This document shows positions 6,073 through 60,928 of a stretch of 64,000 nucleotides of DNA, in pieces. The DNA is from a bacterium UBP8_UBA817. Its GTDB lineage: Bacteria; Margulisbacteria; Marinamargulisbacteria; CAMDBA01. The position numbers and the translations under genes were made by a program. The number at the start of each line of letters is the position of its first letter. The first letter of the stretch is position 1. The notes beneath the pieces were generated by a model, which had not been told where the DNA came from, ran no database searches, and worked only from the letters and a program-made list of their open reading frames with translations. Where the stretch lies: the NCBI GenBank assembly GCA_945888995.1, contig CAMDBA010000001.1, positions 12,796 to 76,795 on the forward strand, in the 5' to 3' direction.

Positions 6073-6286
6073 TTGTTATTCCCCACCAAAAACACGTTTT
6101 TGGCGGGGGTCCCAATTTCAAATATTAATACCAATACAAATATCAATACTAACAATGGAATACAGGACCGGTTGGAGAGCTCAAATTTTGGTGAATTTGA
6201 GGTGGTTTTTAGAGTTGCCGTGGTGGCACACTATAAAGAACTTTGGCGATTGAGCCATGTCGTATTTTACGCCATAATGAACCCCT

Positions 6287-7237: not shown

Positions 7238-7288
7238 AACAGCCCTAAACATAGATTTTTTAAGGCACAAACAGTACAATAGCCACCT

Positions 7289-8536: not shown

Positions 8537-8555
8537 ATTAAAAAGGAGTTTTGAT

Positions 8556-9428: not shown

Positions 9429-9455
9429 ATTTTTTCAAGGAGTATAGACGCTGTT

Positions 9456-10625: not shown

Positions 10626-10631
10626 CCTAAA

Positions 10632-11672: not shown

Positions 11673-12394
11673 ACACCATCGACGTCCTCTCCTATCCTTT
11701 AGCCGATATTACCTATGATGAAGTCGTCTTCTCCATTCAAAAGCGTCTCACAGAGCCGGGATTCACCTATATTATTACGCTCAATCCTGAAATTCTGATT
11801 CGCGCCGATCAAGATCCTGAAGTCTCGGCAATCATCAAAAATGCGTTTTTATGTCTGGCGGATGGCAGCGGATTGATCTTGGCCAGCCGATTTTTATACA
11901 AAAAAGCGCCCAGCAAAATCACTGGAATGGATTTGACGACGATGTTATTGGAAAAAGGAATTTTCTCGTTTTATTTAGTGGGCGGGCACCCGGATATTTT
12001 GCCGAAGGCCGTCGAGGTGATTGCGAAAGACTACCCAAAAAGCGTGATTAAAGGATCACAGCATGGGTATTTCAAACCTGAGGAAGAAGCCGCGATCATT
12101 GCGGATATCCAGGCCAAGAAACCGGATATCGTATTAGTCGGCCTGGGATTTCCCAAGCAAGAACGATTTTTGAAGTCGCTTGAAACCCAGCTGACCTACG
12201 GTGTCGGTATGGGAGTCGGAGGTGTATTTGATATACTGTCCGGCAGCAAGCCGCGCGCGCCTGAGATCTGGCAAAAACTGCATGTCGAATGGCTCTATCG
12301 CGGCCTGATTGAACCCCAACGGATGAAACGCTGGACGTTTATTCCGACTTTCGGCGTTGCCGTTATGAAAGAGTGGATCAATGGTCGGCGTTGA
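11669..12394 (+). CDS. WecB/TagA/CpsF family glycosyltransferase
   Basis: IITLNPE, ADGSG, KITGMDL, VGLGFPKQE, GVGGVFD, RAPEIWQKLHVEWLYR. Confidence 0.92.
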   Translation: MNTIDVLSYPLADITYDEVVFSIQKRLTEPGFTYIITLNPEILIRADQDPEVSAIIKNAFLCLADGSGLILASRFLYKKAPSKITGMDLTTMLLEKGIFSFYLVGGHPDILPKAVEVIAKDYPKSVIKGSQHGYFKPEEEAAIIADIQAKKPDIVLVGLGFPKQERFLKSLETQLTYGVGMGVGGVFDILSGSKPRAPEIWQKLHVEWLYRGLIEPQRMKRWTFIPTFGVAVMKEWINGRR

Positions 12395-12734
12395 TATTAT
12401 CGAAGTGGATCGAATTGCCAAAGGCATAGAGAAGCACGGCCGAAAATTTATAGAGAAATTATTCACCCCAAATGAAATAGCCTACTGCGAAAATCATGTA
12501 AACAAGTTTCAGCGATATGCGGCCCGGTTTGCGATTAAAGAAGCCGTTGCAAAGGTCATTAAAAAAGGGCCAAAGCCGTATTGGCAGGACATTGCCGTCA
12601 CAAATCGGAAAGACGGCTCTCCCGAGGTTATTTTATCCGAACGGCTTTTGAAAATTTTCCCCCATCCGATCTCGATCTCGATTTCACATGTCAAAGACTA
12701 TGCCGTCGGCATGGCCGTGGCCTATCCCAAATGA
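12381..12734 (+). CDS. acpS: Holo-[acyl-carrier-protein] synthase
   Basis: GVDIIEVDRI, AARFAIKEAVAK, SISISH. Confidence 0.95.
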   Translation: MVGVDIIEVDRIAKGIEKHGRKFIEKLFTPNEIAYCENHVNKFQRYAARFAIKEAVAKVIKKGPKPYWQDIAVTNRKDGSPEVILSERLLKIFPHPISISISHVKDYAVGMAVAYPK

Positions 12735-13492
12735 GCATGATCGAAGCGCTATTAAACTCGCTATACAATCAAACCATCACCCCCGAGCAAGCGACTCAGG
12801 CGCTAAAACGCTATCCGTTCGATGACCTGGACTTTGCCAAATTGGATACACACCGGGAATTACGAAAAGGGTTTCCGGAAGTGGTTTTCGGGCAAAATAA
12901 ATCATTCCCTCATCTTGCCGAGATTACCCGGGCGTATCTGGAATCCGGCACCCCGTTTTTTGCGACTCGTATCGACGAGGCGGTCTTTCTCAAACTAAAA
13001 GACCTATATCCTCAACTCATTTATTATCCCGAGGCCCGAATCGTGTGTTCGACGCCACCGGATCCACCCCGTTATCCCGGCACAATTTTGATTATGTCCG
13101 GTGGCACCTCCGATTTTGCCGTCGCAAAAGAAGCGGCGATTACCGCTCAATATCTGGGCAATCATGTTCAGATGATTATGGATGTCGGCGTTGCGGGACT
13201 ACACAGGCTATTGTCCTATCTCGATGATATTCTGGCGGCCAATGTCATTATTGTTGTGGCAGGCATGGAAGGTGCACTCCCCACCGTAGTCTCCGGCCTA
13301 ACCGATAAACCGCTTATCGGGGTGCCTACCAGCGTGGGATACGGAACAGCGTTTAACGGCCTTACCCCGCTGCTGAGTATGCTGAATAGCTGTTCATCCG
13401 GCATGAGCGTCGTGAATATTGATAATGGATTTGGCGCCGGGTTTATGGCCGCGTCTATTAATCGGGTAAATTTGAAGTCGCTCACTAAATAA
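12731..13492 (+). CDS. larB: Nickel-pincer cofactor biosynthesis protein LarB (PurE-like)
   Basis: DTHRELRKGFPEVVFGQNK, GGTSDFAVAKEA, DVGVAGLHRL, AGMEGALP, PTSVGYG, VNIDNGFGA; start moved to ATG 12731, which overlaps the acpS stop. Confidence 0.92.
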   Translation: MSMIEALLNSLYNQTITPEQATQALKRYPFDDLDFAKLDTHRELRKGFPEVVFGQNKSFPHLAEITRAYLESGTPFFATRIDEAVFLKLKDLYPQLIYYPEARIVCSTPPDPPRYPGTILIMSGGTSDFAVAKEAAITAQYLGNHVQMIMDVGVAGLHRLLSYLDDILAANVIIVVAGMEGALPTVVSGLTDKPLIGVPTSVGYGTAFNGLTPLLSMLNSCSSGMSVVNIDNGFGAGFMAASINRVNLKSLTK

Positions 13493-13534
13493 TTTTTCAC
13501 GTGAAACATTCATCACCTCGAAAAGGGTCTAATC

Positions 13535-13999
13535 ATGAACTATAAGATCGAATCGCTTTGTATTCTTGAGACCAATGTCGATGACATGAATCCGCAGATT
13601 TATGATTATCTGATTGACCGGTTATTTAATGCCGGAGTATTGGATGTGTGGATAGTCCCGATTCAAATGAAAAAAAACCGTCCGGCGCAGATGCTCAAGG
13701 TGCTGATTCTGCCAGCCATGCTTGAGTCAACATTGGAGATCTTATTTAAAGAAACGCACACCCTCGGCGTCCGGGTATCCGACATCCGCCGCTACAGTCT
13801 GCCCCGCTCGGAAAAAATTATTGAGACGCCTTACGGCCCAGTTCGTTTCAAAGCAGTGATCATCGACGATCAATCTGAGCTTCGCGCAGAATATGACGAT
13901 TGCAAGCGGATCGCTCAACAAACCGGGCAGTCGCTTCGGAAGGTGATGGAAGAGGTGAATCGGTTGGGAGATACTCTACACTCCCCCCCCATTTCTTGA
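13535..13999 (+). CDS. larC2: LarC C-terminal domain only (LarC2-like nickel insertase part)
   Basis: LETNVDDMNPQ, DVWIVPIQMKKNRP, FKETHTLGVR, TPYGPVRFK, AEYDDC; the His-rich LarC N-terminal part is absent. Confidence 0.82.
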   Translation: MNYKIESLCILETNVDDMNPQIYDYLIDRLFNAGVLDVWIVPIQMKKNRPAQMLKVLILPAMLESTLEILFKETHTLGVRVSDIRRYSLPRSEKIIETPYGPVRFKAVIIDDQSELRAEYDDCKRIAQQTGQSLRKVMEEVNRLGDTLHSPPIS

Positions 14000-14052
14000 T
14001 ATGATACTACCTTCAAAATCACTCATTCCGATTATTCAAAAAAGGTCCCGAT

Positions 14053-16683
14053 ATGGAAAAAGCATTTAGTCCTGCCGAAAACGAATCAAGGCTCTATGAG
14101 CAATGGGAAAGCGCTCACGCATTTGAGCCGTCCGGGAATGGAGATCCTTTTTCAGTGGTGATCCCACCTCCGAATGTCACAGGCATTTTACATATCGGAC
14201 ATGCACTAAACATCACCTTGCAAGACATCCTCGTCAGGTACCAACGCCAAAAAGGCAAACGGGTGCTCTGGGTTCCGGGGACCGACCATGCCGGAATCGC
14301 AACTCAGAATGTGATCGAAAAACGACTAAATAAAGAAGGCAAAAATCGATTTGATCTCGGCCGCGACGGATTTATCAAGCGGGTCTGGGAATGGAAGGCC
14401 GAATATGGCACCCGCATTACCAATCAGATTAAACGATTAGGGGCGTCAGTCGATTGGACTCATGAGCGCTTTACGATGGATGCCGGATGTGCAGAGGCGG
14501 TGGTTGCGCATTTTGTAAAGCTTTATGAAGCGGGGCTCATTTACCGGGGAAAATATATTATTAACTGGTGCCCACGATGCCAGACCGCCCTCTCGGATAT
14601 CGAAGTCACTCACGAAGAAACCAATGGCCATCTCTGGCATATTCGCTACGATGAAGTCGACGGTAGCGGCAGCATTGTTGTGGCAACGACCAGACCCGAA
14701 ACGATGTTTGGAGACCAGGCAATTGCGGTTCATCCCGAAGATCCCCGCTACCAAGCCTTGATCGGAAAACAGGTTAAAATTCCGCTTACAGATCGCGTGA
14801 TTCCGGTCATTGCTGATGCTGCGGTTGCAATGGACTTCGGAACGGGTGCCGTGAAAGTCACACCGGCGCATGATCCGAATGACTTTGATATGGGGGCTCG
14901 TCATCAGCTTGAACCGCTCTTGATTATGGATGAAAGCGGGGTCATGAATGACAATGTACCGCTAGAATTTCAAAATCTGGACCGTGCTGTGTGCCGCAAG
15001 AATCTAGTGGCACGTCTCGATGACACTAAATCTCTCACCCGGACCCAAGATCACCTTCTCTCAATTGGCCATTGCTATCGTTGTAATACAATTATAGAGC
15101 CGTATTTATCGAACCAATGGTTTATCGACATGAAAGACATTACCGATCCGGCGATCCAAGCCGTTCGGACATCTGAGATCGAATTTATCCCTAAAAGATG
15201 GGAAAAGCTCTATTTCGACTGGATGGAAAATATCCGACCTTGGTGTATTTCCCGCCAAATCTGGTGGGGGCATCAGATCCCTGTCTGGTATTGCGAATGC
15301 GAACCGGACTCTCCTATCGTTGCCAAAACAGCGCCGACATCTTGCCCGAAATGCGGGTCTTCCGACATCAAACAAGATCCCGACGTTTTAGACACCTGGT
15401 TTTCATCAGCGTTATGGCCGTTTTCGACTTTAGGATGGCCCGAAAAAACCCAGGACCTGGCCGATTTTTACCCGACTTCCACGCTGATCACCGGATATGA
15501 CATTATCACCTTTTGGGTGTCGCGAATGATTACGATGGGGCTTTTTCATATGAAAGAGATCCCCTTCTCCAAGGTCTTCATCCATGGGCTTGTCCGGGAT
15601 ATTTCTGGAAAGAAAATGAGTAAGTCGCTGGGCAATGCGCTTGATCCGATGGAGCTTGTCGATGAATTCGGGGCGGATGCCGTGCGATTCAGCCTTGCCT
15701 CACTGATTACATTAGGCGGACAAGACATTAAAATTTCAAAAGAAAAAATCGAAGCCAGCCGTAATTTTGCCAATAAAGTCTGGAATGTCTCACGCTACAT
15801 TCATATGATTCTGGAAAACCATGACGGCCAGATTCATATTGAAACACCGGCCCTATCGGATGATCCGGCACAGAAATGGATTCTTAGTCTGCTTGCAGGG
15901 ACCCTACAGAAATCGGATGAATACTTTGACACCATGAACTTTGCCTATAGTACGGATTTATTGTGGAATTTCATATGGAATCAATTCTGTGACTGGTATA
16001 TTGAGCTAAGCAAACTGAACAAAGAAAACTCGCTTCCAACGCTGATTTTCTCCCTCACTCAGATTCTAAAAATGCTGCATCCAATCATGCCGTTTATCAC
16101 AGAAGAAATCTGGCAAAAGCTCAATGAATCGGGAAAAATAACCGGCCTTTCTCCTCAGCTCATCACTGCGACCTGGCCTGAACCTCTGGATCGGTACCTA
16201 AACCCCGAGATCGAGCGCGATATGGATATGTTGATTCAAGTAATTCGTGAAGCGCGTAACCTGAGAAAACATCTGGGGCTTGCGCCATCCAAGGAATGCG
16301 CGCTCATCTTAGTCGTTCCTAATCCAGCTGAGTACAAAGCCTTGGAATGGGGTCAGCCGTATATTCAAAAATTAGCCAGAATCAGTGATATTAAAATCAC
16401 CGATAAAACAGATCCTGCTGAGCAAGTCACGTCTGCAGTTATCGGGGAAATACAGGTTTTGATTCCTCTAGCAGGTCTGATTGACGTGGACGCCGAAAAA
16501 ACCCGTCTCAAAAAAGAACTGGCGCAAGTAACGCAAGAATTAAGCGAGCTGCACAAAAAGATTTCCAACGACACATTCCTGCAAAAAGCCCCCCAAGCGG
16601 TGGTTCAAGGGGTTCGTGATCAGCAAGGAATTCTAAAGACTGAAAAACAAGCCATTGAAAAGCAGCTTCTGCATCTCAAATAA
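14053..16683 (+). CDS. valS: Valine--tRNA ligase
   Basis: PPPNVTGILHIGH (HIGH), ATTRPETMFGD, WCISRQIWWGH, KMSKS, C-terminal coiled coil. Confidence 0.99.
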   Translation: MEKAFSPAENESRLYEQWESAHAFEPSGNGDPFSVVIPPPNVTGILHIGHALNITLQDILVRYQRQKGKRVLWVPGTDHAGIATQNVIEKRLNKEGKNRFDLGRDGFIKRVWEWKAEYGTRITNQIKRLGASVDWTHERFTMDAGCAEAVVAHFVKLYEAGLIYRGKYIINWCPRCQTALSDIEVTHEETNGHLWHIRYDEVDGSGSIVVATTRPETMFGDQAIAVHPEDPRYQALIGKQVKIPLTDRVIPVIADAAVAMDFGTGAVKVTPAHDPNDFDMGARHQLEPLLIMDESGVMNDNVPLEFQNLDRAVCRKNLVARLDDTKSLTRTQDHLLSIGHCYRCNTIIEPYLSNQWFIDMKDITDPAIQAVRTSEIEFIPKRWEKLYFDWMENIRPWCISRQIWWGHQIPVWYCECEPDSPIVAKTAPTSCPKCGSSDIKQDPDVLDTWFSSALWPFSTLGWPEKTQDLADFYPTSTLITGYDIITFWVSRMITMGLFHMKEIPFSKVFIHGLVRDISGKKMSKSLGNALDPMELVDEFGADAVRFSLASLITLGGQDIKISKEKIEASRNFANKVWNVSRYIHMILENHDGQIHIETPALSDDPAQKWILSLLAGTLQKSDEYFDTMNFAYSTDLLWNFIWNQFCDWYIELSKLNKENSLPTLIFSLTQILKMLHPIMPFITEEIWQKLNESGKITGLSPQLITATWPEPLDRYLNPEIERDMDMLIQVIREARNLRKHLGLAPSKECALILVVPNPAEYKALEWGQPYIQKLARISDIKITDKTDPAEQVTSAVIGEIQVLIPLAGLIDVDAEKTRLKKELAQVTQELSELHKKISNDTFLQKAPQAVVQGVRDQQGILKTEKQAIEKQLLHLK

Positions 16684-50153: not shown

Positions 50154-50282
50154 AGGTCTGTGTCAAATCTATGGTATTAATCGAAATTTTCGGATCATTG
50201 GTTTAAAGACCGGACAATATTGGGTATTATAAGCAGCGCAGATATATTGATGCCGGGTTTATACCACAGGAGGCTGACTATT

Positions 50283-51485
50283 ATGGAAAAAATGACCCTT
50301 GCGACCTTTATCGTTGAGCCCGAGCATCGCCTCAAACAGGCGCTTGATCCGCTGTTAGGTCCCGACTATCCGATTATTAGTGTGCCGAATAAAGACCTGC
50401 TGTTCAAAGCCTTGCAAGAACATGCCTGCTTTTTACCCGCTGTTATCCTGATCGATTCTAAAATTAAAGAATCTCCGATTCAGCTTCTCCGTGATATCAA
50501 ACGCGACACCTATTGCCATGACGTCATCGTCCTGGCCGATAAAGTCGCCCACGAAGTCGCCATCGACGCCATGCAATCCTGTGCTTCCGACTATCTGACG
50601 CCCCCGCACGAAATCACCCAGCTCTCCGACCTGATCCGGACCCGGGTCGATAATCTGTTGTATCAAAGCAGCATTAACTTATTTGAGTACACCATTAAGC
50701 ACGGCGTCATCGAACGCCAACGCGAAAAACGCGAGCGGCTGATCCATTCCCGCATCTGGGCCATGAAAGCTCAAAATTCGGCTGAGTATCAACGTCTGGA
50801 AGCCGACTTCGACACTCGCGCCCGCTTCTCACTCAAAGGAACCGTCCTAATCGTTGATGACGAGCTGTATTTCCGCCGGACGTTGCAGTTTTTTCTGAAG
50901 CCTAATTTTACAATTCTGGTGGCCGAAGACGGGCTGGATGCCTTGGACGTCCTCAAAGCCCATCCTGAAACCGACGTTGTCCTGCTGGATGTCCGCATGC
51001 CGCGCCTCAATGGCAACGAAGCCATTCCTCAGATCCGCGCGCTTAACCCGCATGTCCAAGTCGTGATGCTCACCGCGTTTAGAGATACCGACATCGCCAT
51101 CCAATCCATGAAACTCGGCGCTTGCGATTACCTGAATAAACCGTCCAAACAATCGATTATTATGGAAAAAGTCCAAAACGCCCTTAAAATCAAACAACTC
51201 TCTATTAATCACGAAACCGAAGTGCCGTATTACGAACGCATCAAGCTATTCGATGACCTCTGGGAATCTGCCGAAGAACATGGCAAAACCTTGCTGTACC
51301 ACGATCTCTATCTCTTCTTCCCCGAAGCCTCACACTACCCGATTGCCGCAACCATGCGTATTACCGATGCGGATATGCACCGTGGCGCTGAGCCGTTGGT
51401 GGATGCAATTATTCATAAATCTAAAGAGATTGAATCGTTGGAAGAAAAAGCCTTAATGGCGAAGTTTTTGAATGGGGCTTTATAA
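50283..51485 (+). CDS. Response regulator with degenerate and canonical receiver domains
   Basis: Second REC is canonical (VLIVDDE, LLDVRMP, MLTA, DYLNKP); first is degenerate (IVEPE, ILID, DYLTPP); start uncertain (50220 or 50283). Confidence 0.8.
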   Translation: MEKMTLATFIVEPEHRLKQALDPLLGPDYPIISVPNKDLLFKALQEHACFLPAVILIDSKIKESPIQLLRDIKRDTYCHDVIVLADKVAHEVAIDAMQSCASDYLTPPHEITQLSDLIRTRVDNLLYQSSINLFEYTIKHGVIERQREKRERLIHSRIWAMKAQNSAEYQRLEADFDTRARFSLKGTVLIVDDELYFRRTLQFFLKPNFTILVAEDGLDALDVLKAHPETDVVLLDVRMPRLNGNEAIPQIRALNPHVQVVMLTAFRDTDIAIQSMKLGACDYLNKPSKQSIIMEKVQNALKIKQLSINHETEVPYYERIKLFDDLWESAEEHGKTLLYHDLYLFFPEASHYPIAATMRITDADMHRGAEPLVDAIIHKSKEIESLEEKALMAKFLNGAL

Positions 51486-51822: not shown

Positions 51823-52353
51823 ATGAAAAAGATCACATTTTTTACAAGTATTCTTTTTGCGATGTGTGTAAGTTGTATTTATGCATCAGATCCGGTGACG
51901 GTCCAAGAGGTAGACTTGAGCAAATATTTGGGAAAATGGCACGAAATTGCGCGGCTACCCAATGCCTTTGAAGCAGCCGATGCCCAAGAAATTACCGCAA
52001 CCTATTCGTTAAATTCAGATAACACCCTGAGGGTTGAAAATAGTTGCTATGTAAATGGAAAGCTAGAAAAAGTAGTTGGCGTCGCTCGAATTGAGGATCC
52101 AAAATCAAAAGCCAAACTGGGTGTGAGCTTCTTCGATATTTTGGGATTTCGGCCGATTTGGGGAGATTATTGGATCTTGGGGTTGGGGCCCAACTATTCG
52201 TATAGTGTCGTAGGAGATCGCGCGCGAAAATACGCATGGATTCTGAGCCGCACACCGGCATTGGGTGAAAAAGAAATGGACGAAGCCATCACCATTCTAA
52301 AAAACAATGGATTTGATGTCACGCGGTTGCTGATAGTAAGCAAAAACAAGTAA
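51823..52353 (+). CDS. blc: Bacterial lipocalin (Blc-like)
   Basis: Signal peptide; VDLSKYLGKWHEIARLPN, ITATYSL, GDYWIL, YAWILSRTP. Confidence 0.92.
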   Translation: MKKITFFTSILFAMCVSCIYASDPVTVQEVDLSKYLGKWHEIARLPNAFEAADAQEITATYSLNSDNTLRVENSCYVNGKLEKVVGVARIEDPKSKAKLGVSFFDILGFRPIWGDYWILGLGPNYSYSVVGDRARKYAWILSRTPALGEKEMDEAITILKNNGFDVTRLLIVSKNK

Positions 52354-52355
52354 AA

Positions 52356-53810
52356 ATGGCCCCTAAAATAACCAGAGGCTTTGTTTGGATCAGAAGAGAT
52401 ATACGGTTGCATGATCATCCGGCGTTGAGTCACGCATTAGAGGCATGTAGTGAAGTTCATGTGGGTTTTATTTTTGATGACACCATCTTGGCTCCGCTTA
52501 AAACCAGACCTCCATTGGGAATCGATCGGCGTGTTCAATTTATAGCCGAATCTTTAGCCGAATGCGACACACAGCTTCGCCAATACGGAAGTCGTTTGCA
52601 TATCCGATATGGAAACCCGTCCTTAGAAATCCCAGAATTAGTTCGCGCTTTGAATATCGATCGAGTTTACTTTAATCGGGATTATTCTCCTTATGCCGTT
52701 TCAAGAGATACAGACATGACCGAACAACTTGAAAGTATGGGTGCTTCGGTTCATTCATTTCGAGACCATGTTATATTCGAACCTGAAGAAATTCTCAATA
52801 ATGCGAAAAAGCCCTATGGTGTATTTACGCCTTATTCCAAGGCATGGAGGGATCGCTTAAGCATTTCGGAAGATCGTTTGACCCCATTTTCTACAAAATG
52901 GAGTCACCTCGCAAAATCTTTTGACGAGCCCCCTTTGAAAGTGGGGTTTTTATTAGAATTGGCGGGTTTCGAACACATTAAAAATGACTTAAAGGGCGGA
53001 TCAGCTGCTGGCTTATTGCGACTTAACCAATTTACAGAAAAAATGCAGCACTATGACCAGGCAAGAGATTTTTTTGGCGAGGAAGGAACCTCTAAATTAT
53101 CGGTTTACTTGCGCCATGGGTGTATCTCGATTAGAGATATGGTAAATGTCGCATTATCTTACCCATCTTTGGGGGCTGAAAAATGGTTATCTGAACTGAT
53201 TTGGCGGGAATTTTATCAGATGATTTTCCACTTTCACCCTTGGGTAAATGATCGTCCCTATCAAAATAAATTTCGAGATATGCAATGGCCAACTTCTGAA
53301 GTATATTTTGAAGCGTTTAAAAATGGCCATACCGGATTCCCAATCATTGATGCCGCAATGCGATGTCTTAACCAAACGGGTTGGATGCCTAATCGCCTAC
53401 GCATGGTGACGGCATCGTTTTTGACTAAGATTTTATTGGTCGACTGGAAACGTGGCGAGCGATATTTCTCTTGGAAATTACTTGATTATGAACTTCAATC
53501 CAATAACGGCGGGTGGCAATGGGCGGCGGGAATCGGCTGTGATGCAGCCCCATATTTTCGAATTTTCAATCCTATTACGCAATCGAAAACTTATGACACT
53601 GAGGGTGGCTTTATTCGACAATATTGTCCGGAACTCAGTGTACTTTCCCATGCACAAATTCATTTTCCGGCAGGTGAAAAACAGCTCCCGCTTTCATTTC
53701 AACTTGGGGTTCATTATCCCATGCCAATTGTGGATTATGCATCCCAGAGGATAAAGGCTTTGGAACTATTTTCACACGCATCCGCGAGTGCGCTTGTCCC
53801 CAAAAACTAG
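52356..53810 (+). CDS. phrB: Class I deoxyribodipyrimidine photolyase
   Basis: WIRRDIRLHDHPAL, TSKLSVYL, WREFY, TGFPIIDAAMR, NRLRMVTASFL, LDYELQSNNGGWQW, FRIFNP. Confidence 0.93.
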   Translation: MAPKITRGFVWIRRDIRLHDHPALSHALEACSEVHVGFIFDDTILAPLKTRPPLGIDRRVQFIAESLAECDTQLRQYGSRLHIRYGNPSLEIPELVRALNIDRVYFNRDYSPYAVSRDTDMTEQLESMGASVHSFRDHVIFEPEEILNNAKKPYGVFTPYSKAWRDRLSISEDRLTPFSTKWSHLAKSFDEPPLKVGFLLELAGFEHIKNDLKGGSAAGLLRLNQFTEKMQHYDQARDFFGEEGTSKLSVYLRHGCISIRDMVNVALSYPSLGAEKWLSELIWREFYQMIFHFHPWVNDRPYQNKFRDMQWPTSEVYFEAFKNGHTGFPIIDAAMRCLNQTGWMPNRLRMVTASFLTKILLVDWKRGERYFSWKLLDYELQSNNGGWQWAAGIGCDAAPYFRIFNPITQSKTYDTEGGFIRQYCPELSVLSHAQIHFPAGEKQLPLSFQLGVHYPMPIVDYASQRIKALELFSHASASALVPKN

Positions 53811-53990: not shown

Positions 53991-55262
53991 TTAAGCGGAT
54001 ACCGGCATCCTCACCACAAACGTCGTCCCCGCCTCTACCTCAGAATCTGACAGGACTTCGATCGCGCCATGGTGATCGGCGACGAGTTTGAAGACCATGG
54101 AGAGGCCGAGTCCGTGGCTTTCGTGCTTCGTGGTGTAAAAGGTGTCAAAAATTTTGAGTTGGATGTCTTTGGGAATGCCGGGGCCGGTGTCTTTTATTCG
54201 GATGCAGATGCTGTTTTTCTGGGTGTCGAGGTCTGTGAGGGTGCACGTGCGGATCGTGATAGTGCCGATGCGTTCGGTGGCGGCGATGGCCTCGATGGCG
54301 TTGAGGATTAGGTTAGTGAAAATCTGGGAGAGGGCAGTTGCATCAGCCTTAATCATCGGGATTTTTTCGGGCTCGAAGACGAAGGTGACGCCATGGATGC
54401 CGGCTTTGGCTTTGGCGAGGTCGATGGTTTTTTGGATTTCTTTGTTGAGATCGAGGTCTTTTTTCTCGCGTGCGCCGGTGCGTCCGTAGTCGAGCATGGT
54501 GTCGGTGATATTGAGGACGCGGTCGATATTTTCTTCGATTCCAGTGGAGAACTCGGCGACGACTTCGGGGCGGTGGAGGTTTTGGGAGACAATTTCCCAG
54601 CAGGAGAGGATCATGCCGATGGGATTGCGGATTTCGTGGGCGATGCCTCGGGTTAGGGTGGCGTAGGAGGCTTGTTGTTGGAGGCGTTCGATGGTTAGTT
54701 TGTTTTCTTTTAAATCATTATATGCATCTTGAAGGAGGTGCTTTTCGGTTGATAATTCGTTATTGGCCTCTTCAAGCCGGGATTTTGCTTTCATTGTCTC
54801 AATATAAAAAAATAAAACCCCCAAAAAATTAATCAAAAAAGTTGTAATAATTAACAAAAAATAGAAGAACTTTTGAAAAACAGGATTCAAAAAAACAGGA
54901 GAAAACAGCTCATAATCAGTTATTTCCAGCAATATGTAACACATAACTGAAAGAAAGGAACAAATGAGAATACGCTTCTTTTGACTTATTTCAAATAGAA
55001 CCAATGGCAACCAAGCAGCAGCGTAATAAACCATTTGCGCACCTGAACGTTGACCCAAAACTGAAGAGTAATAAAAAATTCCAAAGTTCATGCAAAAAAT
55101 AGTTGAAAATTTTGAAACTGCATAAAACCCCCCTCGGTTGAGTACAATTGCAACTAAAAAAACAGAGCCAATTAAAGCCATAGTCGGAACTAAGGAAGTA
55201 AGACCAATTGCACAGAAAATAATAACGTAGGCAAAGGCTACCGTACCAAGAATACCATTCAC
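53991..55262 (-). CDS. Multi-TM sensor histidine kinase
   Basis: About 5 TM helices; AHEIRNP, NLILNAIEA, DTGPGI, FYTTK, GLGLS; 5' end uncertain. Confidence 0.9.
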   Translation of the reverse strand: MNGILGTVAFAYVIIFCAIGLTSLVPTMALIGSVFLVAIVLNRGGFYAVSKFSTIFCMNFGIFYYSSVLGQRSGAQMVYYAAAWLPLVLFEISQKKRILICSFLSVMCYILLEITDYELFSPVFLNPVFQKFFYFLLIITTFLINFLGVLFFYIETMKAKSRLEEANNELSTEKHLLQDAYNDLKENKLTIERLQQQASYATLTRGIAHEIRNPIGMILSCWEIVSQNLHRPEVVAEFSTGIEENIDRVLNITDTMLDYGRTGAREKKDLDLNKEIQKTIDLAKAKAGIHGVTFVFEPEKIPMIKADATALSQIFTNLILNAIEAIAATERIGTITIRTCTLTDLDTQKNSICIRIKDTGPGIPKDIQLKIFDTFYTTKHESHGLGLSMVFKLVADHHGAIEVLSDSEVEAGTTFVVRMPVSA

Positions 55263-55341
55263 ATAATATGTTAATGTGATTTGAAGACTAGACGAAGCGT
55301 GTTGTCTATGGAATCTTTTTAAAATTAGCGAACCTCAAACT

Positions 55342-57294
55342 TTAAATAAAATATCTTGCTCGGGCATTTAACATGGTTTCAAAATTACCTTGCACGCAGG
55401 TTTCTAAGAAATGTAAATATTTTGAAAGATTAGAGTTAGCGATATAAACGGTTCTACGGATATCTGCTATTTTACTTTTAAATTCTTCAACTTTTCTCCT
55501 ATGAATGGATTTAACTTCCAGTTTTGAGAAATCTCTAGTCTTTCCATTCTCCACTTCGTAAACAAAAATAAGATTAGGCTTACCCTTTACTTTATCTTGG
55601 TGTTCCGACCCAAGATCGTTAATCAAATAAATAATCTCACAGGCTAATTCTTCAATCTGTTGGATACAAGTCGCAGTTTCTAGGGTCAAATTAATTGGAA
55701 AAATCCCCAGAATTTTCCAAAGTTCTTGATACGGCCGGACTCCAATATCCACAAAGCGATATTCCATATAGTCCGATACAGAAGTTGCAGGCTCTTTTAT
55801 TATCCATTTTTTACAAAAAGACTTCATCATGTCATGTAATTGGTGATCGAATTCGGCAAGCGCTACACCATTTCGTTTGGAATAGTCCTCTAGTTCATCT
55901 CTAAACGCCTGCACTGCAGACAAAATAGATGGAGATGGAGGGTATGCGATGCTACTTTTTGTTAAAATGCCTAACATATCATCAAGGAGCGTATTAAAAC
56001 CTTCACGAGGGTGATAATCATTATAATCATTTAGAAAATAAAAAATGGTTAAATATCTTGCTGCAATTTCAAGAGCTTGCGTATTGGCTCCCTCTGGAGA
56101 ACAATATTTAAGGTAAGTAGCGATTAGCTTAGAATATACGGGTCGCATTTCAGGGAATAATTCATGCTCACTCATAAAGGTAGTTAAATAGCTCGTTAAT
56201 TCTCCAACGGTCTCATTGTTAAGAAATGCTTTGGGAAAATCATAATCTTCCTTGAAAGATTCTCCCGATATCTTTTTCTCTTCTAATGCAGCAACTGCAA
56301 ATGCGGTAGTAAGCGATTCTCCTCCAAAAAACAAGGTATCACGCGCACATCGAAAAAAAGCATCTGCAGGCCAATTACCTTCTCCTGCTTGGGCCTCGAG
56401 CAACTGGCGAGTATCGACTTCATTTGAGATCTTGTAACGGCTACATAAAATTATTCTTACCGCAAGATCTATAGGATAGGTTGTACAACCAATTCTCTGA
56501 GCAATACGCGCCTCTAGAAGGGGATCAAATCTTTCGCCGAGTTCTGGAGAAACCATAACCGCACGGGATAAAAAATATAAAAACATATCGGGCGATGGGT
56601 AATATCTGGTCCCTTCTAAATAGGCTCCATCTTCAAGCACTTTATAAACGAAATCCTCCGTCGCCTTAATTTCGTCTCCCCGACCTACTAAATGCACGAA
56701 ATACATCGCATTCGCACATACAATTGGATCAAGTCTATTTTCTCGTTCTCCCCTCGGAGGAAAATAGACTTGGATAACGCCATCCTCATTCACATTATCA
56801 ATGACATTATCTGCCACTGACCTTATAACGGCTGTGGAAGCAATCCCTTCAGTCAAAAGGATTGAAGCGCCTATTGAGGTACAATCTACATCTGCAGGAA
56901 ATTTCATTCTTAATCGCGGCTCTTCAAAAAAATAAAATAGGCCGTCTTCATGGTGAGTAGATACAAAATCTCTTAAAGAAGCCATTACTTTACCATTAAT
57001 TGAAGTTCCACTCAGTAAATCAAAAATAACTAAAGTCGAAAAAATCTCAAATGGGCTCCCCTTATGGGAGCTAAACTCTCGATTACGTGAAATTCTACCT
57101 TGAAACCCATCTGAAACACTTGCCCTCGACCGAAGAAATTTATGAGCATTTTCAACTGGAGTCATAGCCTCGCTCGTAAAATGTCGAAAAATTCCAACCA
57201 TCGGAGACAAGCTCTCTGTTCGCACAGGGGTATCTACAACTACTATCGGTGGGATTTCGCGGAGTGAAACAATTTTGTATTTGTGAGTTTTCAT
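55342..57294 (-). CDS. Putative bifunctional terpene cyclase/synthase (class II beta domain plus class I alpha domain)
   Basis: Beta: PADVDCTS (aa133-140), DPIVCAN, YYPSPDMFLYFLSR, QAGEGNW, GESLTTAFA. Alpha: NDYND (422-426), YMEYRFVDIG, NDLGSEHQD (559-567), PNLI, RY (647-648). Confidence 0.8.
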   Translation of the reverse strand: MKTHKYKIVSLREIPPIVVVDTPVRTESLSPMVGIFRHFTSEAMTPVENAHKFLRSRASVSDGFQGRISRNREFSSHKGSPFEIFSTLVIFDLLSGTSINGKVMASLRDFVSTHHEDGLFYFFEEPRLRMKFPADVDCTSIGASILLTEGIASTAVIRSVADNVIDNVNEDGVIQVYFPPRGERENRLDPIVCANAMYFVHLVGRGDEIKATEDFVYKVLEDGAYLEGTRYYPSPDMFLYFLSRAVMVSPELGERFDPLLEARIAQRIGCTTYPIDLAVRIILCSRYKISNEVDTRQLLEAQAGEGNWPADAFFRCARDTLFFGGESLTTAFAVAALEEKKISGESFKEDYDFPKAFLNNETVGELTSYLTTFMSEHELFPEMRPVYSKLIATYLKYCSPEGANTQALEIAARYLTIFYFLNDYNDYHPREGFNTLLDDMLGILTKSSIAYPPSPSILSAVQAFRDELEDYSKRNGVALAEFDHQLHDMMKSFCKKWIIKEPATSVSDYMEYRFVDIGVRPYQELWKILGIFPINLTLETATCIQQIEELACEIIYLINDLGSEHQDKVKGKPNLIFVYEVENGKTRDFSKLEVKSIHRRKVEEFKSKIADIRRTVYIANSNLSKYLHFLETCVQGNFETMLNARARYFI

Positions 57295-57667
57295 AATCTA
57301 TACACCCGAAAACCTTATGGTTGCAAAAAAGGTTAGTTAAAGTAATGAACCGGCTAACATCAATAAAACCTTAGCATTATACCTCTAAGGTTTCAACAAT
57401 TGCTAACACAACTTCGCCCCCCCCAACTTAGAACTCAAGCGAAAATTCGATAATAAACACACTCTGAGCGAGAGGCGCGTGCTTATTTATGCTCGCAATC
57501 GAAATTAAAACGGCATCCAAAGTGCATGACCGCCGAACATCGCGCGGGAGGTGATACCGGGTGGGGGTGCATTCGTAAGGCTTTTCTTTTCAATATAGTC
57601 TACCGTTATCGTAAGAGGTAGGGGGTGGGTGTAGTAATGTCCATTTCCAAAACGACCTGAAAACCGT

Positions 57668-58846
57668 ATGATTTGGAAATATATGCGACTAGATATTTCG
57701 AAAAACGATCATACCCTTTCCTCCCCTCCCAAACGTCACCTTCGCCCCGAACAAACCCGTTCAAAAGGAAAGTTATTGATTCATGGCATCGCCCATGATG
57801 ATTTTTCGTCGAATGATTATCTCGGGTATGCGTGGGATGAGCAACTGATTGCGATTGGGAAAGAGGCATTGGATACTTACGGTACGGGATCGACGGGATC
57901 TCGGCTTTTAACGGGGGACCAGTCGCTTTTTCATGAGCTGGAATCTGCGGTTGCGGACTTTAAAAACAAAGAAGCATCGCTACTCTTCAATTCGGGCTAT
58001 CAGGCCAATCTCAGCATTCTCGACACCCTCACAGGGGCGGAAGATGTGATTTTTGCGGACAAATTGGCGCATGCCAGCTTGATCGACGGCGCGCGCATGA
58101 GCGGGGCGAAGCTCATCCGATTTGCTCATAACGATGCTGGACATCTTCGGATCCTGCTCGAAAAACACCGACCGCAGTATCAAAACGCGATGATCGTCAC
58201 CGAATCCGTCTTTAGTATGGACGGAGACCGTGCACCGCTGGCGGAATTAGTCGACTTAAAATACACCTATGAGTGCGCATTATTAGTGGACGAAGCCCAT
58301 GCGACGGGCCTATTTGGGCCTACCGGGGCCGGATGGGTGGAGGCGCTTGGACTGTCAGCTGACGTGGATCTGATCATGGGTACATTCGGGAAGGCGCTGG
58401 GAAGTGCGGGGGCGTATCTGGCATGTCCGCAGGCGGTTAAAGATCAATTTATTCAAACTTGCCGCGGGTTTATTTATACGACGGCCTTACCGCCTGCCAC
58501 TGTAGCGGTGAATCTGGCAGCAATCCGGCTGGTTCAATCGGAAGCATTCCGACGAACTGAATTGATCGATCGAACCGTTTGGCTCAGAGAAGCGCTGACT
58601 CAGACAGGACTCACACTTCTGGGTGATACGCACATTATTCCGATTGTCGTGGGTGATGAATCCGACGCTCTCAGGCTCTCCGATAGGCTGAAGTCTCATC
58701 GGTTCTGGATATTGCCCATTCGATATCCCACCGTTCCTCGCGGACAGGCCCGTTTGCGCCTTTCACTCACCCACCGGCATACGCCTGAGGTACTGGAACG
58801 ATTGGTCGATGTGATGACTCAAATCTATCGGGACACACAGCCATGA
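57668..58846 (+). CDS. bioF: 8-amino-7-oxononanoate synthase
   Basis: FSSNDYLG, GSTGSRLLTG, FNSGYQAN, HASLIDG, ESVFSMDGD, DEAHATG, GTFGKALG; exact start uncertain. Confidence 0.95.
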   Translation: MIWKYMRLDISKNDHTLSSPPKRHLRPEQTRSKGKLLIHGIAHDDFSSNDYLGYAWDEQLIAIGKEALDTYGTGSTGSRLLTGDQSLFHELESAVADFKNKEASLLFNSGYQANLSILDTLTGAEDVIFADKLAHASLIDGARMSGAKLIRFAHNDAGHLRILLEKHRPQYQNAMIVTESVFSMDGDRAPLAELVDLKYTYECALLVDEAHATGLFGPTGAGWVEALGLSADVDLIMGTFGKALGSAGAYLACPQAVKDQFIQTCRGFIYTTALPPATVAVNLAAIRLVQSEAFRRTELIDRTVWLREALTQTGLTLLGDTHIIPIVVGDESDALRLSDRLKSHRFWILPIRYPTVPRGQARLRLSLTHRHTPEVLERLVDVMTQIYRDTQP

Positions 58847-59493
58847 CCGCCGCTATCCCTCTGATTGCGATACCCGGATGGGCGATGGACGAAGCGATTT
58901 TTTCCGGAGTGCAATTGCCGGGTATGGTGACGATTTTGTCCTCCGACACCATGCACTTTGAGGAGCGGTTACTCACACGTATAGCCTATCTCCAGGCACC
59001 AAAAATCGACTTACTGGGATTTTCGATGGGGGGATTTCTGGCTCAGGCATTCGCGCTGAAACACCCGGAGAAGATCAACCGGCTTTTTCTCGCGGGTATT
59101 CGGTCGCATTATCCCGACACTGCCATCATTAAACGGTATCTGACGAAAAATAAGGCGCTTTATTTGGAAAAATTCTACACGGCTTGTCTTCCGTCACCAC
59201 CGGATGCAACATTAAATGGGTTATTCTCCCGCTACATCATCGACTGGCCGATAGATGCCCTCTTACAAAGCTTGGCGTATCTGGCCCAAGCCCGCATTCA
59301 AGGTGACGTAAAACCGCCATTTGAAACGGTTCTGTTTCACGGGAAACAAGATGTCATTGCGCCGCTGTCAGAAGCTCAAACAATTGCGGAAACGCTCGGC
59401 AGCGCTCTGCATATTTTTGAGGAGGCGGGGCACTTAGTGGTCGTTGATCCGGATTTTTGTGGCACACTCGCCCGTTATCGGAGCAACCCATGA
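58843..59493 (+). CDS. bioH: Pimeloyl-ACP methyl ester esterase (BioH-like alpha/beta hydrolase)
   Basis: PGWAM, GFSMGG nucleophile elbow, QDVIAP, AGH; between bioF and bioC. Confidence 0.7.
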   Translation: MTAAIPLIAIPGWAMDEAIFSGVQLPGMVTILSSDTMHFEERLLTRIAYLQAPKIDLLGFSMGGFLAQAFALKHPEKINRLFLAGIRSHYPDTAIIKRYLTKNKALYLEKFYTACLPSPPDATLNGLFSRYIIDWPIDALLQSLAYLAQARIQGDVKPPFETVLFHGKQDVIAPLSEAQTIAETLGSALHIFEEAGHLVVVDPDFCGTLARYRSNP

Positions 59494-60254
59494 CACCCCA
59501 TCGCGTCCGCGCCAATTTCTCAAAACACGCCGCCCACTATAATGACTATGCCATCGTGCAATCCCATGTCGGTGACCGGTTATGGCAGAGTTTAGACGGA
59601 GACTCTCCCCGACACATTTTGGACCTCGGGTGCGGGACCGGCAGATGGACCGCCGGTTTAGCTGAGGCGTTTGCCGAAGCGGATATTACCGCCATCGATT
59701 TTTCAGCAGCCATGATCGAACAAGCTAAAAAAACCTTAAAAAACACGGCGATCCGCTTTGAAGTCGGAGATATTCGTGAGGTCTCGTTTGACCGGCCATT
59801 TGACTTGATCGTCTCGAATGCGTCGCTTCATTGGTGCCATCCCATTGCACCTCTCTTCAAAAAATACGCGGCCCAATTAACACCGAACGGCACAATGGCG
59901 GCCTCCCTTTACGGACCCGGGACATTTTGCGAATTAAGCGCCAGCATGGCTGAGCTCTCTGAAGCCCCGATTGAAATCAGCGCCGTGCAATTCGCATCCA
60001 TAGAGACGTTATCAGCGGCATTTCGCCCTCTTTTTTCCACCGTCGACATCTGGCAAGAAATCATCACCCAGGTCTACCCGGATCTACGCACGTTATTGCG
60101 TCATATCAAAAAAACCGGCACACAAGGAACAGGCTTGAAAAATCGAGGACTATGGACGCCACGGTTTTTGGATCGCTTATCCAAACAGTATCTTCATGAC
60201 CACGGTCAATTTCGATGCTCCTCCCAAATTTTTTATCTGAAAGGCCGCCGATGA
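59490..60254 (+). CDS. bioC: Malonyl-ACP O-methyltransferase
   Basis: FSKHAAHYNDYAIVQ, LDLGCGTG, SNASLHW, GPGTFCEL; start moved to ATG 59490. Confidence 0.9.
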   Translation: MTPHRVRANFSKHAAHYNDYAIVQSHVGDRLWQSLDGDSPRHILDLGCGTGRWTAGLAEAFAEADITAIDFSAAMIEQAKKTLKNTAIRFEVGDIREVSFDRPFDLIVSNASLHWCHPIAPLFKKYAAQLTPNGTMAASLYGPGTFCELSASMAELSEAPIEISAVQFASIETLSAAFRPLFSTVDIWQEIITQVYPDLRTLLRHIKKTGTQGTGLKNRGLWTPRFLDRLSKQYLHDHGQFRCSSQIFYLKGRR

Positions 60255-60928
60255 CCCCGATTTTTGTAACCGGCACCGACACAAACGTCGGCAAATCAAC
60301 CGTCACGGCACTGATCGCAGGCTATCTGGCGCAAAAGGGCCATACCGTGACCACCCAAAAATGGATTCAGACCGGCTGCTCTGACAAAACGTGGGATCTA
60401 GATCGGCATAATCGGTGGTTAGGTGAGGTTTATCCGCATGATGATCGGTACGCCTATGCGTTTGACCCGGCCGTATCGCCCCACCTCGCAGCGAAAGAAG
60501 CCGGTGTTGCCATCGATCCTGCTCGGATTTCAGACCAGACTCGCGCCCTCGCGACGCGCTTTGAGTACGTGATCATTGAAGGAAGTGGCGGATGGTATGT
60601 GCCCTATTCGGAGTCGGGCCTCATGGCGGACCTTGTTCAAGACTTAAACCTTCCCGTTTTATTGGTCGCCGCTAACCGCCTTGGCGCGATCAACCATACG
60701 CTTCTCACCATCGAATCTATTCAAAATCGCAGACTTCCCTTTATCGGCACACTCTTCACCTCACCTTCTGCGAACGAAAACCCGGCGGTTTCGGCCGATA
60801 ATCCCGCGATTATCGCCTCTATTTCGGGCACAAAAACAATCGGAATCCTCCCATTTTGCACCTCGGAGGAACAGCTCTCTCACGCCTTTTCCAGTATTGG
60901 TGACAGGCTTTACAAAACCCTTCGTTAA
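60251..60928 (+). CDS. bioD: Dethiobiotin synthase
   Basis: FVTGTDTNVGKS, QTG, SPHLAA, IEGSGG, LGAINHTLLT; start moved to ATG 60251. Confidence 0.95.
   Translation: MTPIFVTGTDTNVGKSTVTALIAGYLAQKGHTVTTQKWIQTGCSDKTWDLDRHNRWLGEVYPHDDRYAYAFDPAVSPHLAAKEAGVAIDPARISDQTRALATRFEYVIIEGSGGWYVPYSESGLMADLVQDLNLPVLLVAANRLGAINHTLLTIESIQNRRLPFIGTLFTSPSANENPAVSADNPAIIASISGTKTIGILPFCTSEEQLSHAFSSIGDRLYKTLR

Follow-up and report, generated by a model that had tools for sequence, protein, structure and literature searches.

A gene at positions 55342 to 57294 (minus strand) of the window, a 64,000-nucleotide (nt) stretch of contig CAMDBA010000001.1 from the Margulisbacteria genome UBP8_UBA817 (assembly GCA_945888995.1), encodes a beta domain of the class II terpene cyclases and a class I terpene synthase alpha domain in a single polypeptide. 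Catalogued terpene synthase architectures comprise alpha, alpha-alpha, alpha-beta, alpha-beta-gamma, beta-gamma, single-beta and HAD-beta proteins, and the gene combines known catalytic domains in an architecture so far undescribed. Consistent with a preliminary description made from the sequence alone, which gave characterised bifunctional class II/I enzymes as gamma-beta-alpha, our literature search returned no paper describing a TC-beta plus class I alpha architecture; most subscription journals were outside its reach, and a prior description may therefore exist. On balance, if only just, the protein is probably a cytosolic, gamma-less beta-alpha synthase that converts farnesyl diphosphate (FPP) to a drimane in two sequential steps. 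If so, an active class II beta domain coupled to a class I alpha domain with no gamma domain would be a new architecture and the smallest known class II/class I tandem enzyme.

The reading frame and every motif quoted in the preliminary description were recovered at their positions. The features of the synthase are listed here, with amino acid (aa) numbering from the first residue of the 650-aa frame:

55342..57294 (-): two-domain terpene synthase reading frame, uninterrupted, 650 aa
56263..57162 (-): AstC/AsDMS-type class II terpene cyclase with a single barrel, forming the beta domain (aa 45-344), by its 9mhs and AstC matches and the PF28380 (AstC-like_C) label of homologues
aa 133-140: PADVDCTS
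56881..56892 (-): D135-V-D137-C138 (DVDC); by alignment, D137 corresponds to the general acid (AsDMS D323, AstC D273) and D135 to the proposed base (AstC D271)
aa 189-199: DPIVCANAMYF
aa 231-244: YYPSPDMFLYFLSR
aa 302-308: QAGEGNW
aa 325-333: GESLTTAFA
55345..56262 (-): class I terpene synthase fold of bacterial type (PF19086), forming the alpha domain (aa 345-650)
56017..56031 (-): N422-D-Y-N-D426 (NDYND), non-canonical first metal-binding motif at the DDxxD position by profile alignment
aa 509-518: YMEYRFVDIG
55756..55758 (-): R513, putative sensor Arg for the diphosphate, which precedes N559 by 46 residues and is kept in at least 90% of the alpha domains of the family
55594..55620 (-): N559-D-L-G-S563-E-H-Q-D567, the second metal-binding motif, of NSE/DTE type by family alignment, with Asp replacing Glu
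55351..55356 (-): R647-Y648, the RY pair that binds diphosphate near the C-terminus, with hardly any variation among family members

The N-terminal half resembles the cyclase domains of HAD-fused drimane synthases. Among solved structures, the counterparts of aa 67-337 are the TC-beta domain of AsDMS, a drimenol synthase (9mhs_B, E = 1.9e-50), and AstC (22ty_A, E = 8e-29), and Foldseek against the PDB superposed this half of the model on AsDMS (9mhs_A) with a root mean square deviation of 1.8 Å over 298 columns at 36% identity. The fold is a single (alpha/alpha)6 barrel, and a Pfam scan gave neither SQHop_cyclase nor gamma-domain matches; the PF28380 label was taken from precomputed annotation of homologues. 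The D135-V-D137-C-T segment aligns with D321-L-D323-T-T of AsDMS, for which we use the 9mhs chain numbering, equal to that of the Christianson papers (D323 is D333 in the Takahashi numbering), and both aspartates are kept in 61 of 63 aligned homologues. The preliminary description had placed DVDC between the DxDD motif of squalene-hopene cyclases and the DCTAE motif of oxidosqualene cyclases. This idea does not hold, as the fourth position of the DxDxT motif is most often a cysteine (in 40 of the 63 aligned sequences, mostly single-beta proteins), and a hybrid of the two cyclase types was ruled out because DVDC is the clade's commonest motif.

The remaining active-site positions of the beta domain were matched to AsDMS by alignment. 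Residues R368, R370, R415, Y416 and R503, which form the diphosphate clamp of AsDMS, correspond to R184, R187, R230, Y231 and R318, where the pairing of R184 with R368 depends on an ambiguous gap, and the cation-pi aromatics F271, F308 and Y417 correspond to F85, F122 and Y232. The acid/base, clamp and aromatic positions are nearly invariant in the 63 homologues, except R187 and R318, which are each found in about half. In AsDMS, these residues serve as Mg-independent diphosphate ligands, cation-pi aromatics and general acid (PMC13684600, PMC12232559), and in AstC D271 is the proposed base and D273 the acid (PMC13244436). The beta domain is therefore predicted to retain an acid/base pair, a Mg-independent diphosphate clamp and cation-pi aromatics.

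The C-terminal half is a class I terpene synthase domain by score and by fold. Residues 418-603 reach 47.7 bits on PF19086 (Terpene_syn_C_2), whose gathering score is 23.7, and Foldseek returned bacterial class I sesquiterpene synthases, including T-muurolol and 1-epi-cubenol synthases, at target template-modelling (TM) scores of about 0.8 (0.80 for 9hqm_B) and 18-19% identity. A profile built from 13 family alpha domains, which are 21-31% identical to that of the window, matched T-muurolol synthase with E = 4.5e-21; a word-index search with the alpha domain alone found no relatives, which surfaced only in the exhaustive HMMER search described below. In the profile alignment the family's LND falls on FFMDDQCD of T-muurolol synthase, so that the DDxxD position is occupied here by NDYND, 137 residues upstream of N559. 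This position is degenerate across the alpha family, which lowers confidence in a fully canonical mechanism and leaves the fold and the family membership by score unaffected. The NSE-type triad, the sensor Arg and the RY pair are all present and invariant or nearly so in the 13 alpha domains (N559, D560 and S563 in all, D567 in at least 90%), as are a GN pair and a family-specific CSP motif (C398). The 46-residue spacing between sensor Arg and NSE motif is known for bacterial class I synthases.

An AlphaFold2 model built on the 63-sequence alignment has a mean predicted local distance difference test (pLDDT) score of 87.1. Most of each half exceeds 90, the short linker at aa 344-348 is of low confidence, and aa 1-40 are disordered, with pLDDT below 50. 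Ahead of the beta domain lie some 44 residues of poor conservation. Translation from M44 (nt 57165) would give a 607-aa protein, near-identical public copies are called at either 607 or 650 aa, and M44 may be the true start. Sequence, profile and fold comparisons agree with the preliminary description on both domain assignments, on the gamma-less layout and on the likeness to HAD-fused drimenol/AstC cyclases. The two halves model as the barrel and the isoprenoid-synthase fold that it had predicted, and the same comparisons support its candidate catalytic residues D137 and D423/N559.

Pairing of the two domain types across genomes

An exhaustive HMMER search of 1.84 billion representatives yielded 866 relatives, of which 150 were listed. 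Almost all of the 866 are single-beta or HAD-beta proteins, yet the matches listed, together with one protein from genome G018, include at least 17 clusters (50% identity) that carry both domain types, in both orders. The beta-alpha order occurs among the matches listed in P0090 (39% identity), P0091-93, P0003, P0096, P0099, P0138 and P0193, and in the 967-aa G018 protein; the alpha-beta order occurs among them in P0004/P0094, P0006, P0097, P0098, P0118, P0202 and P0101. Fusions are scattered among single-beta proteins in a tree of the beta domain, where branches with Shimodaira-Hasegawa-like approximate likelihood ratio support of 95 or more force at least three beta-alpha and at least two alpha-beta origins. 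The approximately unbiased test rejects a single clade for eight beta-alpha proteins (p = 0.0036), a group named after the tree had been seen. No relative emerged when the genome collection was scanned with the aligned fusion proteins.

The same two domains also occur as neighbouring genes. In a Myxococcales metagenome-assembled genome (GCA_020633315.1) and in a JGI contig, unfused beta and alpha genes follow one another in this order, 8 and 36 nt apart, with a cytochrome P450 gene alongside. The unfused Myxococcota alpha proteins match PF19086, belong to the same alpha subfamily and read FLHGVGIL in place of an Asp-rich motif while keeping NDxxTxxxD. This alpha gene is likely to be the natural partner of single-beta sesquiterpene cyclases such as that of Sorangium, and would then be the missing partner of these enzymes; the published Sorangium work found no dephosphorylating enzyme. 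The closest fusion homologue among the matches listed (P0090, 39% identity) likewise has a P450 gene directly upstream. The closest alpha-only relative among the matches listed (P0186/P0237) carries the same NDYND motif, and its gene lies 1.2 kb from that of a 591-aa beta-gamma cyclase homologous to SsDMS (7xq4, E = 2.4e-58). In a further variation, the 590-aa metagenomic protein P0103 carries a TC-beta domain with the motif DVDDT and, fused to it at the C-terminus, a histidine phosphatase (His_Phos_1, E = 5e-15), another undescribed cyclase-phosphatase architecture that parallels HAD-TCbeta. The unfused arrangements map as follows:

L023/L030 (JACKDV010000006.1) 6001-9323, and L024 4701-7997: cluster of P450, single-beta cyclase and class I alpha synthase; on JACKDV010000006.1 the gene pair lies at about 165.4-167.4 kb
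L037 5667-6653 (+): alpha-only NDYND-type synthase
L037 7874-9649 (-): SsDMS-like beta-gamma class II cyclase, motif DTDTS

Taken together, the fusions, the operons, P0103 and the context of P0186/P0237 indicate that TC-beta cyclases recurrently pair with a diphosphate-removing module. The alpha subfamily recurrently pairs with class II FPP cyclases. The proposal of a two-step enzyme, first made in the preliminary description, gains genomic support from these repeated fusions in both orders, from the beta-then-alpha operons with P450 and from the alpha-only gene beside an SsDMS-like cyclase.

Other neighbourhoods of relatives differ in content. At L025 (6001-8272) a single-beta cyclase gene is followed by one for a UbiA prenyltransferase, which hints at meroterpenoid or cyclised-lipid chemistry. 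On the JGI contig with the alpha-beta protein P0004, a SpoIIE/PP2C phosphatase gene, encoding a signalling protein, follows the synthase, and there is also a weak P450 match. Beside P0090, locus L020 holds a 2117-aa reading frame (7525-13878, minus strand) and a 754-aa frame running off the locus (13914-15118, minus strand), neither with a Pfam match, and an IS240-type transposase fragment upstream.

Substrate and order of reaction

The genome of the window (1.04 Mb in 15 contigs, 76% complete) contains a single PF00348 gene, in an xseA-ispA-dxs arrangement. Its protein reaches 318 bits on NCBIfam FPPsyn, where the cut-off is 275, and does not attain that of CrtE. Five residues ahead of its first Asp-rich motif it has Tyr, which determines chain length in FPP synthases. 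By these sequence criteria, the sole prenyl synthase found in the genome is an FPP synthase. No prenyl diphosphate synthase was found at the eight related loci that have Pfam labels on their called genes, and no P450 in the genome of the window. All characterised TC-beta enzymes (AsDMS, AstC, AacA and the Sorangium single-beta enzyme) use FPP, and the Sorangium enzyme cyclises it without Mg2+ to a product that needs an external phosphatase (bioRxiv 10.1101/2025.09.20.677545). Because the genome offers only an FPP synthase, the eight loci offer no prenyl synthase and the characterised relatives act on FPP, a C15 (drimane) product is favoured over a C20 (labdane) one. Of the two product types named in the preliminary description, the drimane is accordingly the one we retain, and the labdane is less favoured.

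In the two-step synthase, the beta barrel would clamp FPP without Mg2+ through R184/R187, R230, Y231 and R318, a role suggested by residue conservation. D137 would protonate the terminal C10=C11 double bond while F85, F122 and Y232 stabilise the cations, and bicyclisation would give a drimane-type diphosphate, either the drimenyl, the albicanyl or the drim-8-en-11-yl isomer. The alpha domain would then take up the cyclic diphosphate, with N559/S563/D567, N422/D423/D426, the sensor R513 and R647/Y648 as predicted ligands, and may remove the diphosphate by Mg2+-assisted ionisation to leave a drimane-type olefin or alcohol, possibly rearranged. This step would be chemically easiest if the beta product were the allylic drim-8-en-11-yl isomer, as in AstC. 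The alpha domain would thereby represent a third kind of diphosphate-removing partner for TC-beta, after the HAD phosphatase of AsDMS and the histidine phosphatase of P0103.

Several points weigh against this reaction scheme. Drimenyl and albicanyl diphosphates are homoallylic and only the drim-8-enyl isomer is allylic, and we know of no precedent for class I ionisation of homoallylic drimane diphosphates. The first metal-binding motif, non-canonical here, is lost in relatives, which read LNIFVFG (P0003), LIEARSR (P0096) or FLHGVGIL (the unfused Myxococcota partners), so that the alpha subfamily may not use a classical trinuclear Mg cluster. The AlphaFold2 model has a predicted TM score of 0.61 and hence does not predict the relative orientation of the beta and alpha domains, and with the genome 76% complete a geranylgeranyl diphosphate (GGPP) synthase may have escaped notice. 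Against L026, a strain at 99% identity, the ratio of non-synonymous to synonymous substitution rates is 0.84, drawn from 5 synonymous and 15 non-synonymous differences, which are too few to interpret, and catalysis by the fusion family is predicted wholly from sequence.

Two homoallylic isomers and a degenerate Asp-rich motif leave room for a scheme without classical ionisation, in which the alpha domain is a diphosphate hydrolase or a diphosphate-binding hand-off module, no carbocation forms, and the product is a drimane alcohol that retains the ester oxygen, as with the HAD domain of AsDMS. The alpha subfamily, which keeps the NSE-type triad, sensor Arg and RY pair while its Asp-rich motif is degenerate or absent, would suit such a role; the known TC-beta partners are phosphatases (HAD in AsDMS, His_Phos_1 in P0103), and the two homoallylic drimane diphosphates are by established chemistry poor substrates for ionisation. 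We nevertheless consider hydrolysis unlikely. The NDYND motif here keeps two acidic residues and an Asn at the metal-binding positions, an NDxxD motif is reportedly functional in a plant germacrene D synthase, and we know of no class I alpha-fold enzyme that hydrolyses P-O bonds. If the alpha subfamily does act on the cyclic diphosphate, its degenerate DDxxD may reveal an unusual handling of this substrate, possibly of a non-allylic one. A larger substrate is a further alternative. Class II cyclisation of GGPP leaves the allylic diphosphate that is the textbook class I substrate; in this scheme the beta domain would form a copalyl-type diphosphate and the alpha domain a labdane-related diterpene (or a larger product), as a gamma-less analogue of gamma-beta-alpha enzymes. 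Low-TM Foldseek matches to bifunctional miltiradiene and abietadiene synthases and the incompleteness of the genome lend this some weight. We hold it to be improbable, given that the only prenyl synthase found is an FPP synthase below the CrtE cut-off, that the eight related loci with Pfam-labelled genes contain no GGPP synthase gene, that the characterised TC-beta relatives (AsDMS, AstC, AacA and the Sorangium single-beta enzyme) use FPP, and that the clamp-to-acid distance of AsDMS reportedly fits FPP, with clamp and acid conserved here at 36-40% identity.

The remaining alternatives question whether both sites act, or in which order. One domain may be catalytically dead, as a structural cap or as a ligand-binding module reporting to the downstream kinase described below, leaving a single terpene-forming step. 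The non-canonical NDYND motif fits this idea, as does the established inactivity of the beta domain in plant beta-alpha synthases. AstC offers a parallel, as its fused HAD-like domain is inactive yet structurally needed (PMC13244436). The catalytic residues of both domains are however conserved at 24-39% identity and across independent fusions, and the P450 neighbours of relatives imply release of a dephosphorylated terpene, so that we give a dead domain little credence. A reversed sequence, with FPP ionised first in the alpha domain and the resulting acyclic or monocyclic terpene then protonated and cyclised in the beta domain, would accommodate the occurrence of both domain orders in the family and has a known counterpart in pathways that run from class I to class II, such as tetraprenyl-beta-curcumene synthase followed by SqhC in Bacillus. 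It is the least plausible of these alternatives and in our view very improbable: the full AsDMS-like Arg/Tyr clamp in the beta domain argues for a diphosphate-bearing substrate, and the Sorangium single-beta enzyme takes FPP directly. We therefore retain the sequential FPP-to-drimane synthase, with beta acting before alpha.

Sensor kinases, regulators and origin of the gene

Directly downstream of the synthase lies a sensor histidine kinase gene, and a response regulator gene is found further along the window. The preliminary description had passed over this link, which extends to 46 of the 65 class I synthase genes of the class. The genes concerned, with the regulators that accompany synthase-kinase pairs in related loci, are:

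53991..55262 (-): sensor histidine kinase directly downstream of the synthase (Pfam HisKA and HATPase_c), from a family that is expanded in the class
55263..55341 (-): synthase-kinase spacer, 79 nt, without any difference in a sister strain
50220..51485 (+): response regulator (Pfam Response_reg) lacking an output domain, one of its two receivers degenerate and the other canonical; accompanies the pair of the window
L007 12437-13684 (-): regulator accompanying the pair in G018
L029 3844-4839 (-): regulator accompanying the pair in L029
L038 653-1801 (-): regulator accompanying the pair in G050

By eye, residues 1-155 of the kinase, ahead of HisKA and HATPase_c, contain six hydrophobic helices at close spacing; a crude hydropathy script bore out the hydrophobic region and did not resolve it into six. 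A scan of the coding strand found no terminator-like or promoter-like site in the 79-nt spacer; as counts overall were no better than in shuffled sequence, only the lack of a minus-strand terminator-like site in the spacer was relied on. The synthase is probably co-transcribed with this six-transmembrane (6-TM) kinase. Co-transcription would tie the product or the expression of the synthase to two-component signalling. Full-length homologues of the kinase follow fusion genes in G018 (with a 4-nt overlap), L022 (P0093), L029 (P0092) and L026, and those of G018, L022 and L029 align over their full length, sensor region included, with E values of 9e-42, 1e-48 and 6e-60. The regulator at 50220-51485 is collinear with the L029 regulator that is convergent to the kinase (E = 8e-14), and its receiver matches both receivers of the G018 regulator, also convergent to the kinase; it is the probable partner of the kinase. 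The regulators of the window and L029 have double receivers and no recognisable output, that of G018 (L007) has two receiver-like regions and that of G050 (L038) one receiver match. In G018 and L029 the regulator gene runs convergent to that of the kinase, in G050 the two share a strand, and in the window two genes, for a lipocalin and a photolyase-like protein, lie between.

The kinase pairing is not specific to the beta-alpha fusion. Canonical class I synthases with intact DDxxD, NSE and RY motifs lie upstream of kinases of the same family in G024, G052 and G050, and across the class Marinamargulisbacteria we counted 65 PF19086 matches in 32 of 55 genomes, 46 of them with such a kinase directly downstream on the same strand. 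These 46 pairs are spread over 25 genomes (including G024, G027, G014, G019, G030, G007 and G052), with up to seven in a single 1.4-Mb genome, a median of 492 nt from the end of the PF19086 match to the start of the kinase N-terminal match, and the reverse order seen three times. By a rough estimate that assumes at most about 10 such kinases and about 1,500 genes per genome, well under one pair would be expected by chance. A tree of the synthase-linked kinases and their paralogues did not resolve whether the linked kinases have a single origin. Our literature search found no paper on the synthase-kinase pairing, nor on terpenes of Margulisbacteria or Chlamydiae.

The roles of terpenes in bacteria are largely unknown, and the presence of a single-family kinase downstream of 46 of 65 synthases offers a testable hypothesis, that terpenes act as signals. 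Tentatively, and with more doubt than conviction, we suggest that synthase, 6-TM kinase and output-less double-receiver regulator form a terpenoid signal synthase/receptor circuit, one of up to seven per 1.4-Mb genome, each with its own synthase type, in which the beta-alpha fusion is a horizontally acquired, swapped-in module making a drimane-type signal. If this were true, it would constitute terpene-built chemical signalling read by two-component sensors, of which we know no example, and a class whose genomes are small and probably host-associated would carry a whole repertoire of such circuits. The synthase-kinase pairing is a second lead, possibly more important than the fusion itself. 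In positions 57295-57667 we found no credible candidate for a gene encoding a ComX-like, Trp-containing peptide.

Base composition sets the synthase apart from its surroundings. As noted in the preliminary description the gene is AT-rich, with 38.6% GC and 30% GC at third codon positions (GC3), an outlier against housekeeping neighbours at 53-57% GC3 and the downstream kinase at 52% GC3. Homologues in L022 (8001-10088) and L020 (5136-7118) show the same contrast: the synthase genes hold to about 36-39% GC and 26-30% GC3 whatever the composition of the host, and the kinases behind them in the window and L022 look native. Among 55 genomes of the class no more than 2 have a beta-alpha relative, as do 2 of the 146 in the phylum. 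This distribution and the contrast with the neighbours indicate that the synthase gene was probably acquired horizontally. Two near-orthologous kinases (E = 2e-153) stand behind unlike synthases: in G050 a canonical class I enzyme of 470 aa (L038, G050:C15, 3286-4698, minus strand), in L022 a beta-alpha fusion of 695 aa (8001-10088). The synthase thus appears to have been replaced ahead of a conserved kinase, and these patterns suggest that the synthase slot ahead of the kinase is refilled by horizontal transfer.

The window contains further features near these genes. Between kinase and regulator, a Blc-type outer-membrane lipocalin lipoprotein gene (51823-52353, plus strand) and a photolyase-like reading frame (52356-53810, plus strand; read from its translation, with a low GC3 of 38%) lie 2 nt apart; a lipocalin could bind a terpenoid. 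Divergent from the synthase, four co-directional reading frames at 57668-60928 (plus strand) are bioF-, bioH-, bioC- and bioD-like by reading of their translations. The segment 57295-57420, upstream of the synthase, holds two short inverted repeats, CCTTAG...CTAAGG, followed by T's, and AACCTT...AAGGTT, which are kept in L026 save for point changes.

Comparison with known systems

The HAD-TCbeta enzymes are the nearest characterised relatives of the beta domain. AsDMS of Aquimarina spongiae (PDB 9MHS, 9M7D-F) shares the single-barrel beta domain at 36-40% identity and 1.8 Å, together with the DxD motif, clamp and aromatics, and is likewise a cyclase fused to a domain that handles the diphosphate of the cyclised intermediate. 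It differs in that this domain is an N-terminal HAD phosphatase, as opposed to a C-terminal class I alpha domain, and in its DLDTT motif, which reads DVDCT here; Pfam and NCBIfam scans of our protein gave no HAD match, which sets it apart from HAD-TCbeta proteins (AsDMS, AstC, AncC, DrtB and AacA) with their N-terminal phosphatase. Fungal AstC and AacA (PDB 22TY, 22TZ) have a homologous beta domain (E = 8e-29), with AstC D271/D273 equivalent to D135/D137, and AstC forms drim-8-en-11-yl diphosphate, which is the allylic isomer and a possible substrate for ionisation by a class I domain. Unlike the window protein they are fungal, HAD-fused and lower in sequence identity, and separate phosphatases finish their pathway. 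The mono-beta cyclase of Sorangium cellulosum (WP_129572421) belongs to the same bacterial beta clade and converts FPP to a cyclised diphosphate without Mg2+, but is unfused, and the available published work identifies no natural partner; the available text of the paper (bioRxiv 10.1101/2025.09.20.677545) makes no mention of a downstream class I alpha gene.

Enzymes that join class II and class I sites are already known with a gamma domain. In gamma-beta-alpha enzymes (abietadiene synthase 3S9V, miltiradiene synthase 7WAT, CseDCS/ChjDCS; PMC11469919), an N-terminal class II and a C-terminal class I site act in sequence, as proposed here, but our protein has no gamma domain and its beta domain stems from the AstC-like clade, is unrelated in sequence and probably acts on FPP. 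Membership in that group was rejected on the missing gamma domain, the lack of PF13243 or PF13249 matches, a length of only 650 aa and Foldseek TM scores of about 0.3 to 7wat and 3s9v. The survey of bacterial gamma-beta-alpha enzymes searched with gamma-beta profiles (PMC11469919), and would therefore have been blind to this family. A plant-type beta-alpha synthase (PF01397 plus PF03936) was rejected as well, as PF01397 gave no match, PF03936 reached 17.9 bits against a cut-off of 26.3, and the catalytic DxD is kept in the beta domain. In plant-type beta-alpha synthases the PF01397 beta domain is catalytically inert. Bacterial class I synthases (T-muurolol 9HQI, 1-epi-cubenol 9HQ2, pentalenene 1PS1) share the alpha fold, NSE-type triad, sensor Arg, RY pair and PF19086 match with the alpha domain, which differs at 18-19% identity by its NDYND and CSP (C398) motifs and its class II fusion.

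Two further systems resemble the locus in layout. CqsA/CqsS of Vibrio and LqsA/LqsS/LqsR of Legionella place a signal synthase gene beside that of a 6-TM kinase sensing its small hydrophobic product. The synthase-kinase pair shares this layout only, and Lqs also has a receiver-type regulator without a classical output; CqsA and LqsA are by contrast PLP-dependent acyltransferases that make alpha-hydroxyketones, with no sequence relationship to the synthase, and terpene sensing here is hypothetical. In the drimane clusters of Streptomyces (SsDMS; the cav cluster with the class II DMS CavC, CavB and CavF; PMC11035983) the gene of a class II FPP cyclase lies together with that of an enzyme which removes diphosphate, and the cav cluster also holds CavF, a terpene cyclase of class I, and P450s. 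There, however, the cyclase is of the beta-gamma type, the functions reside in separate proteins and dephosphorylation is assigned to the Nudix hydrolase CavB, whereas the window protein joins a single-beta cyclase to its class I partner in one chain.

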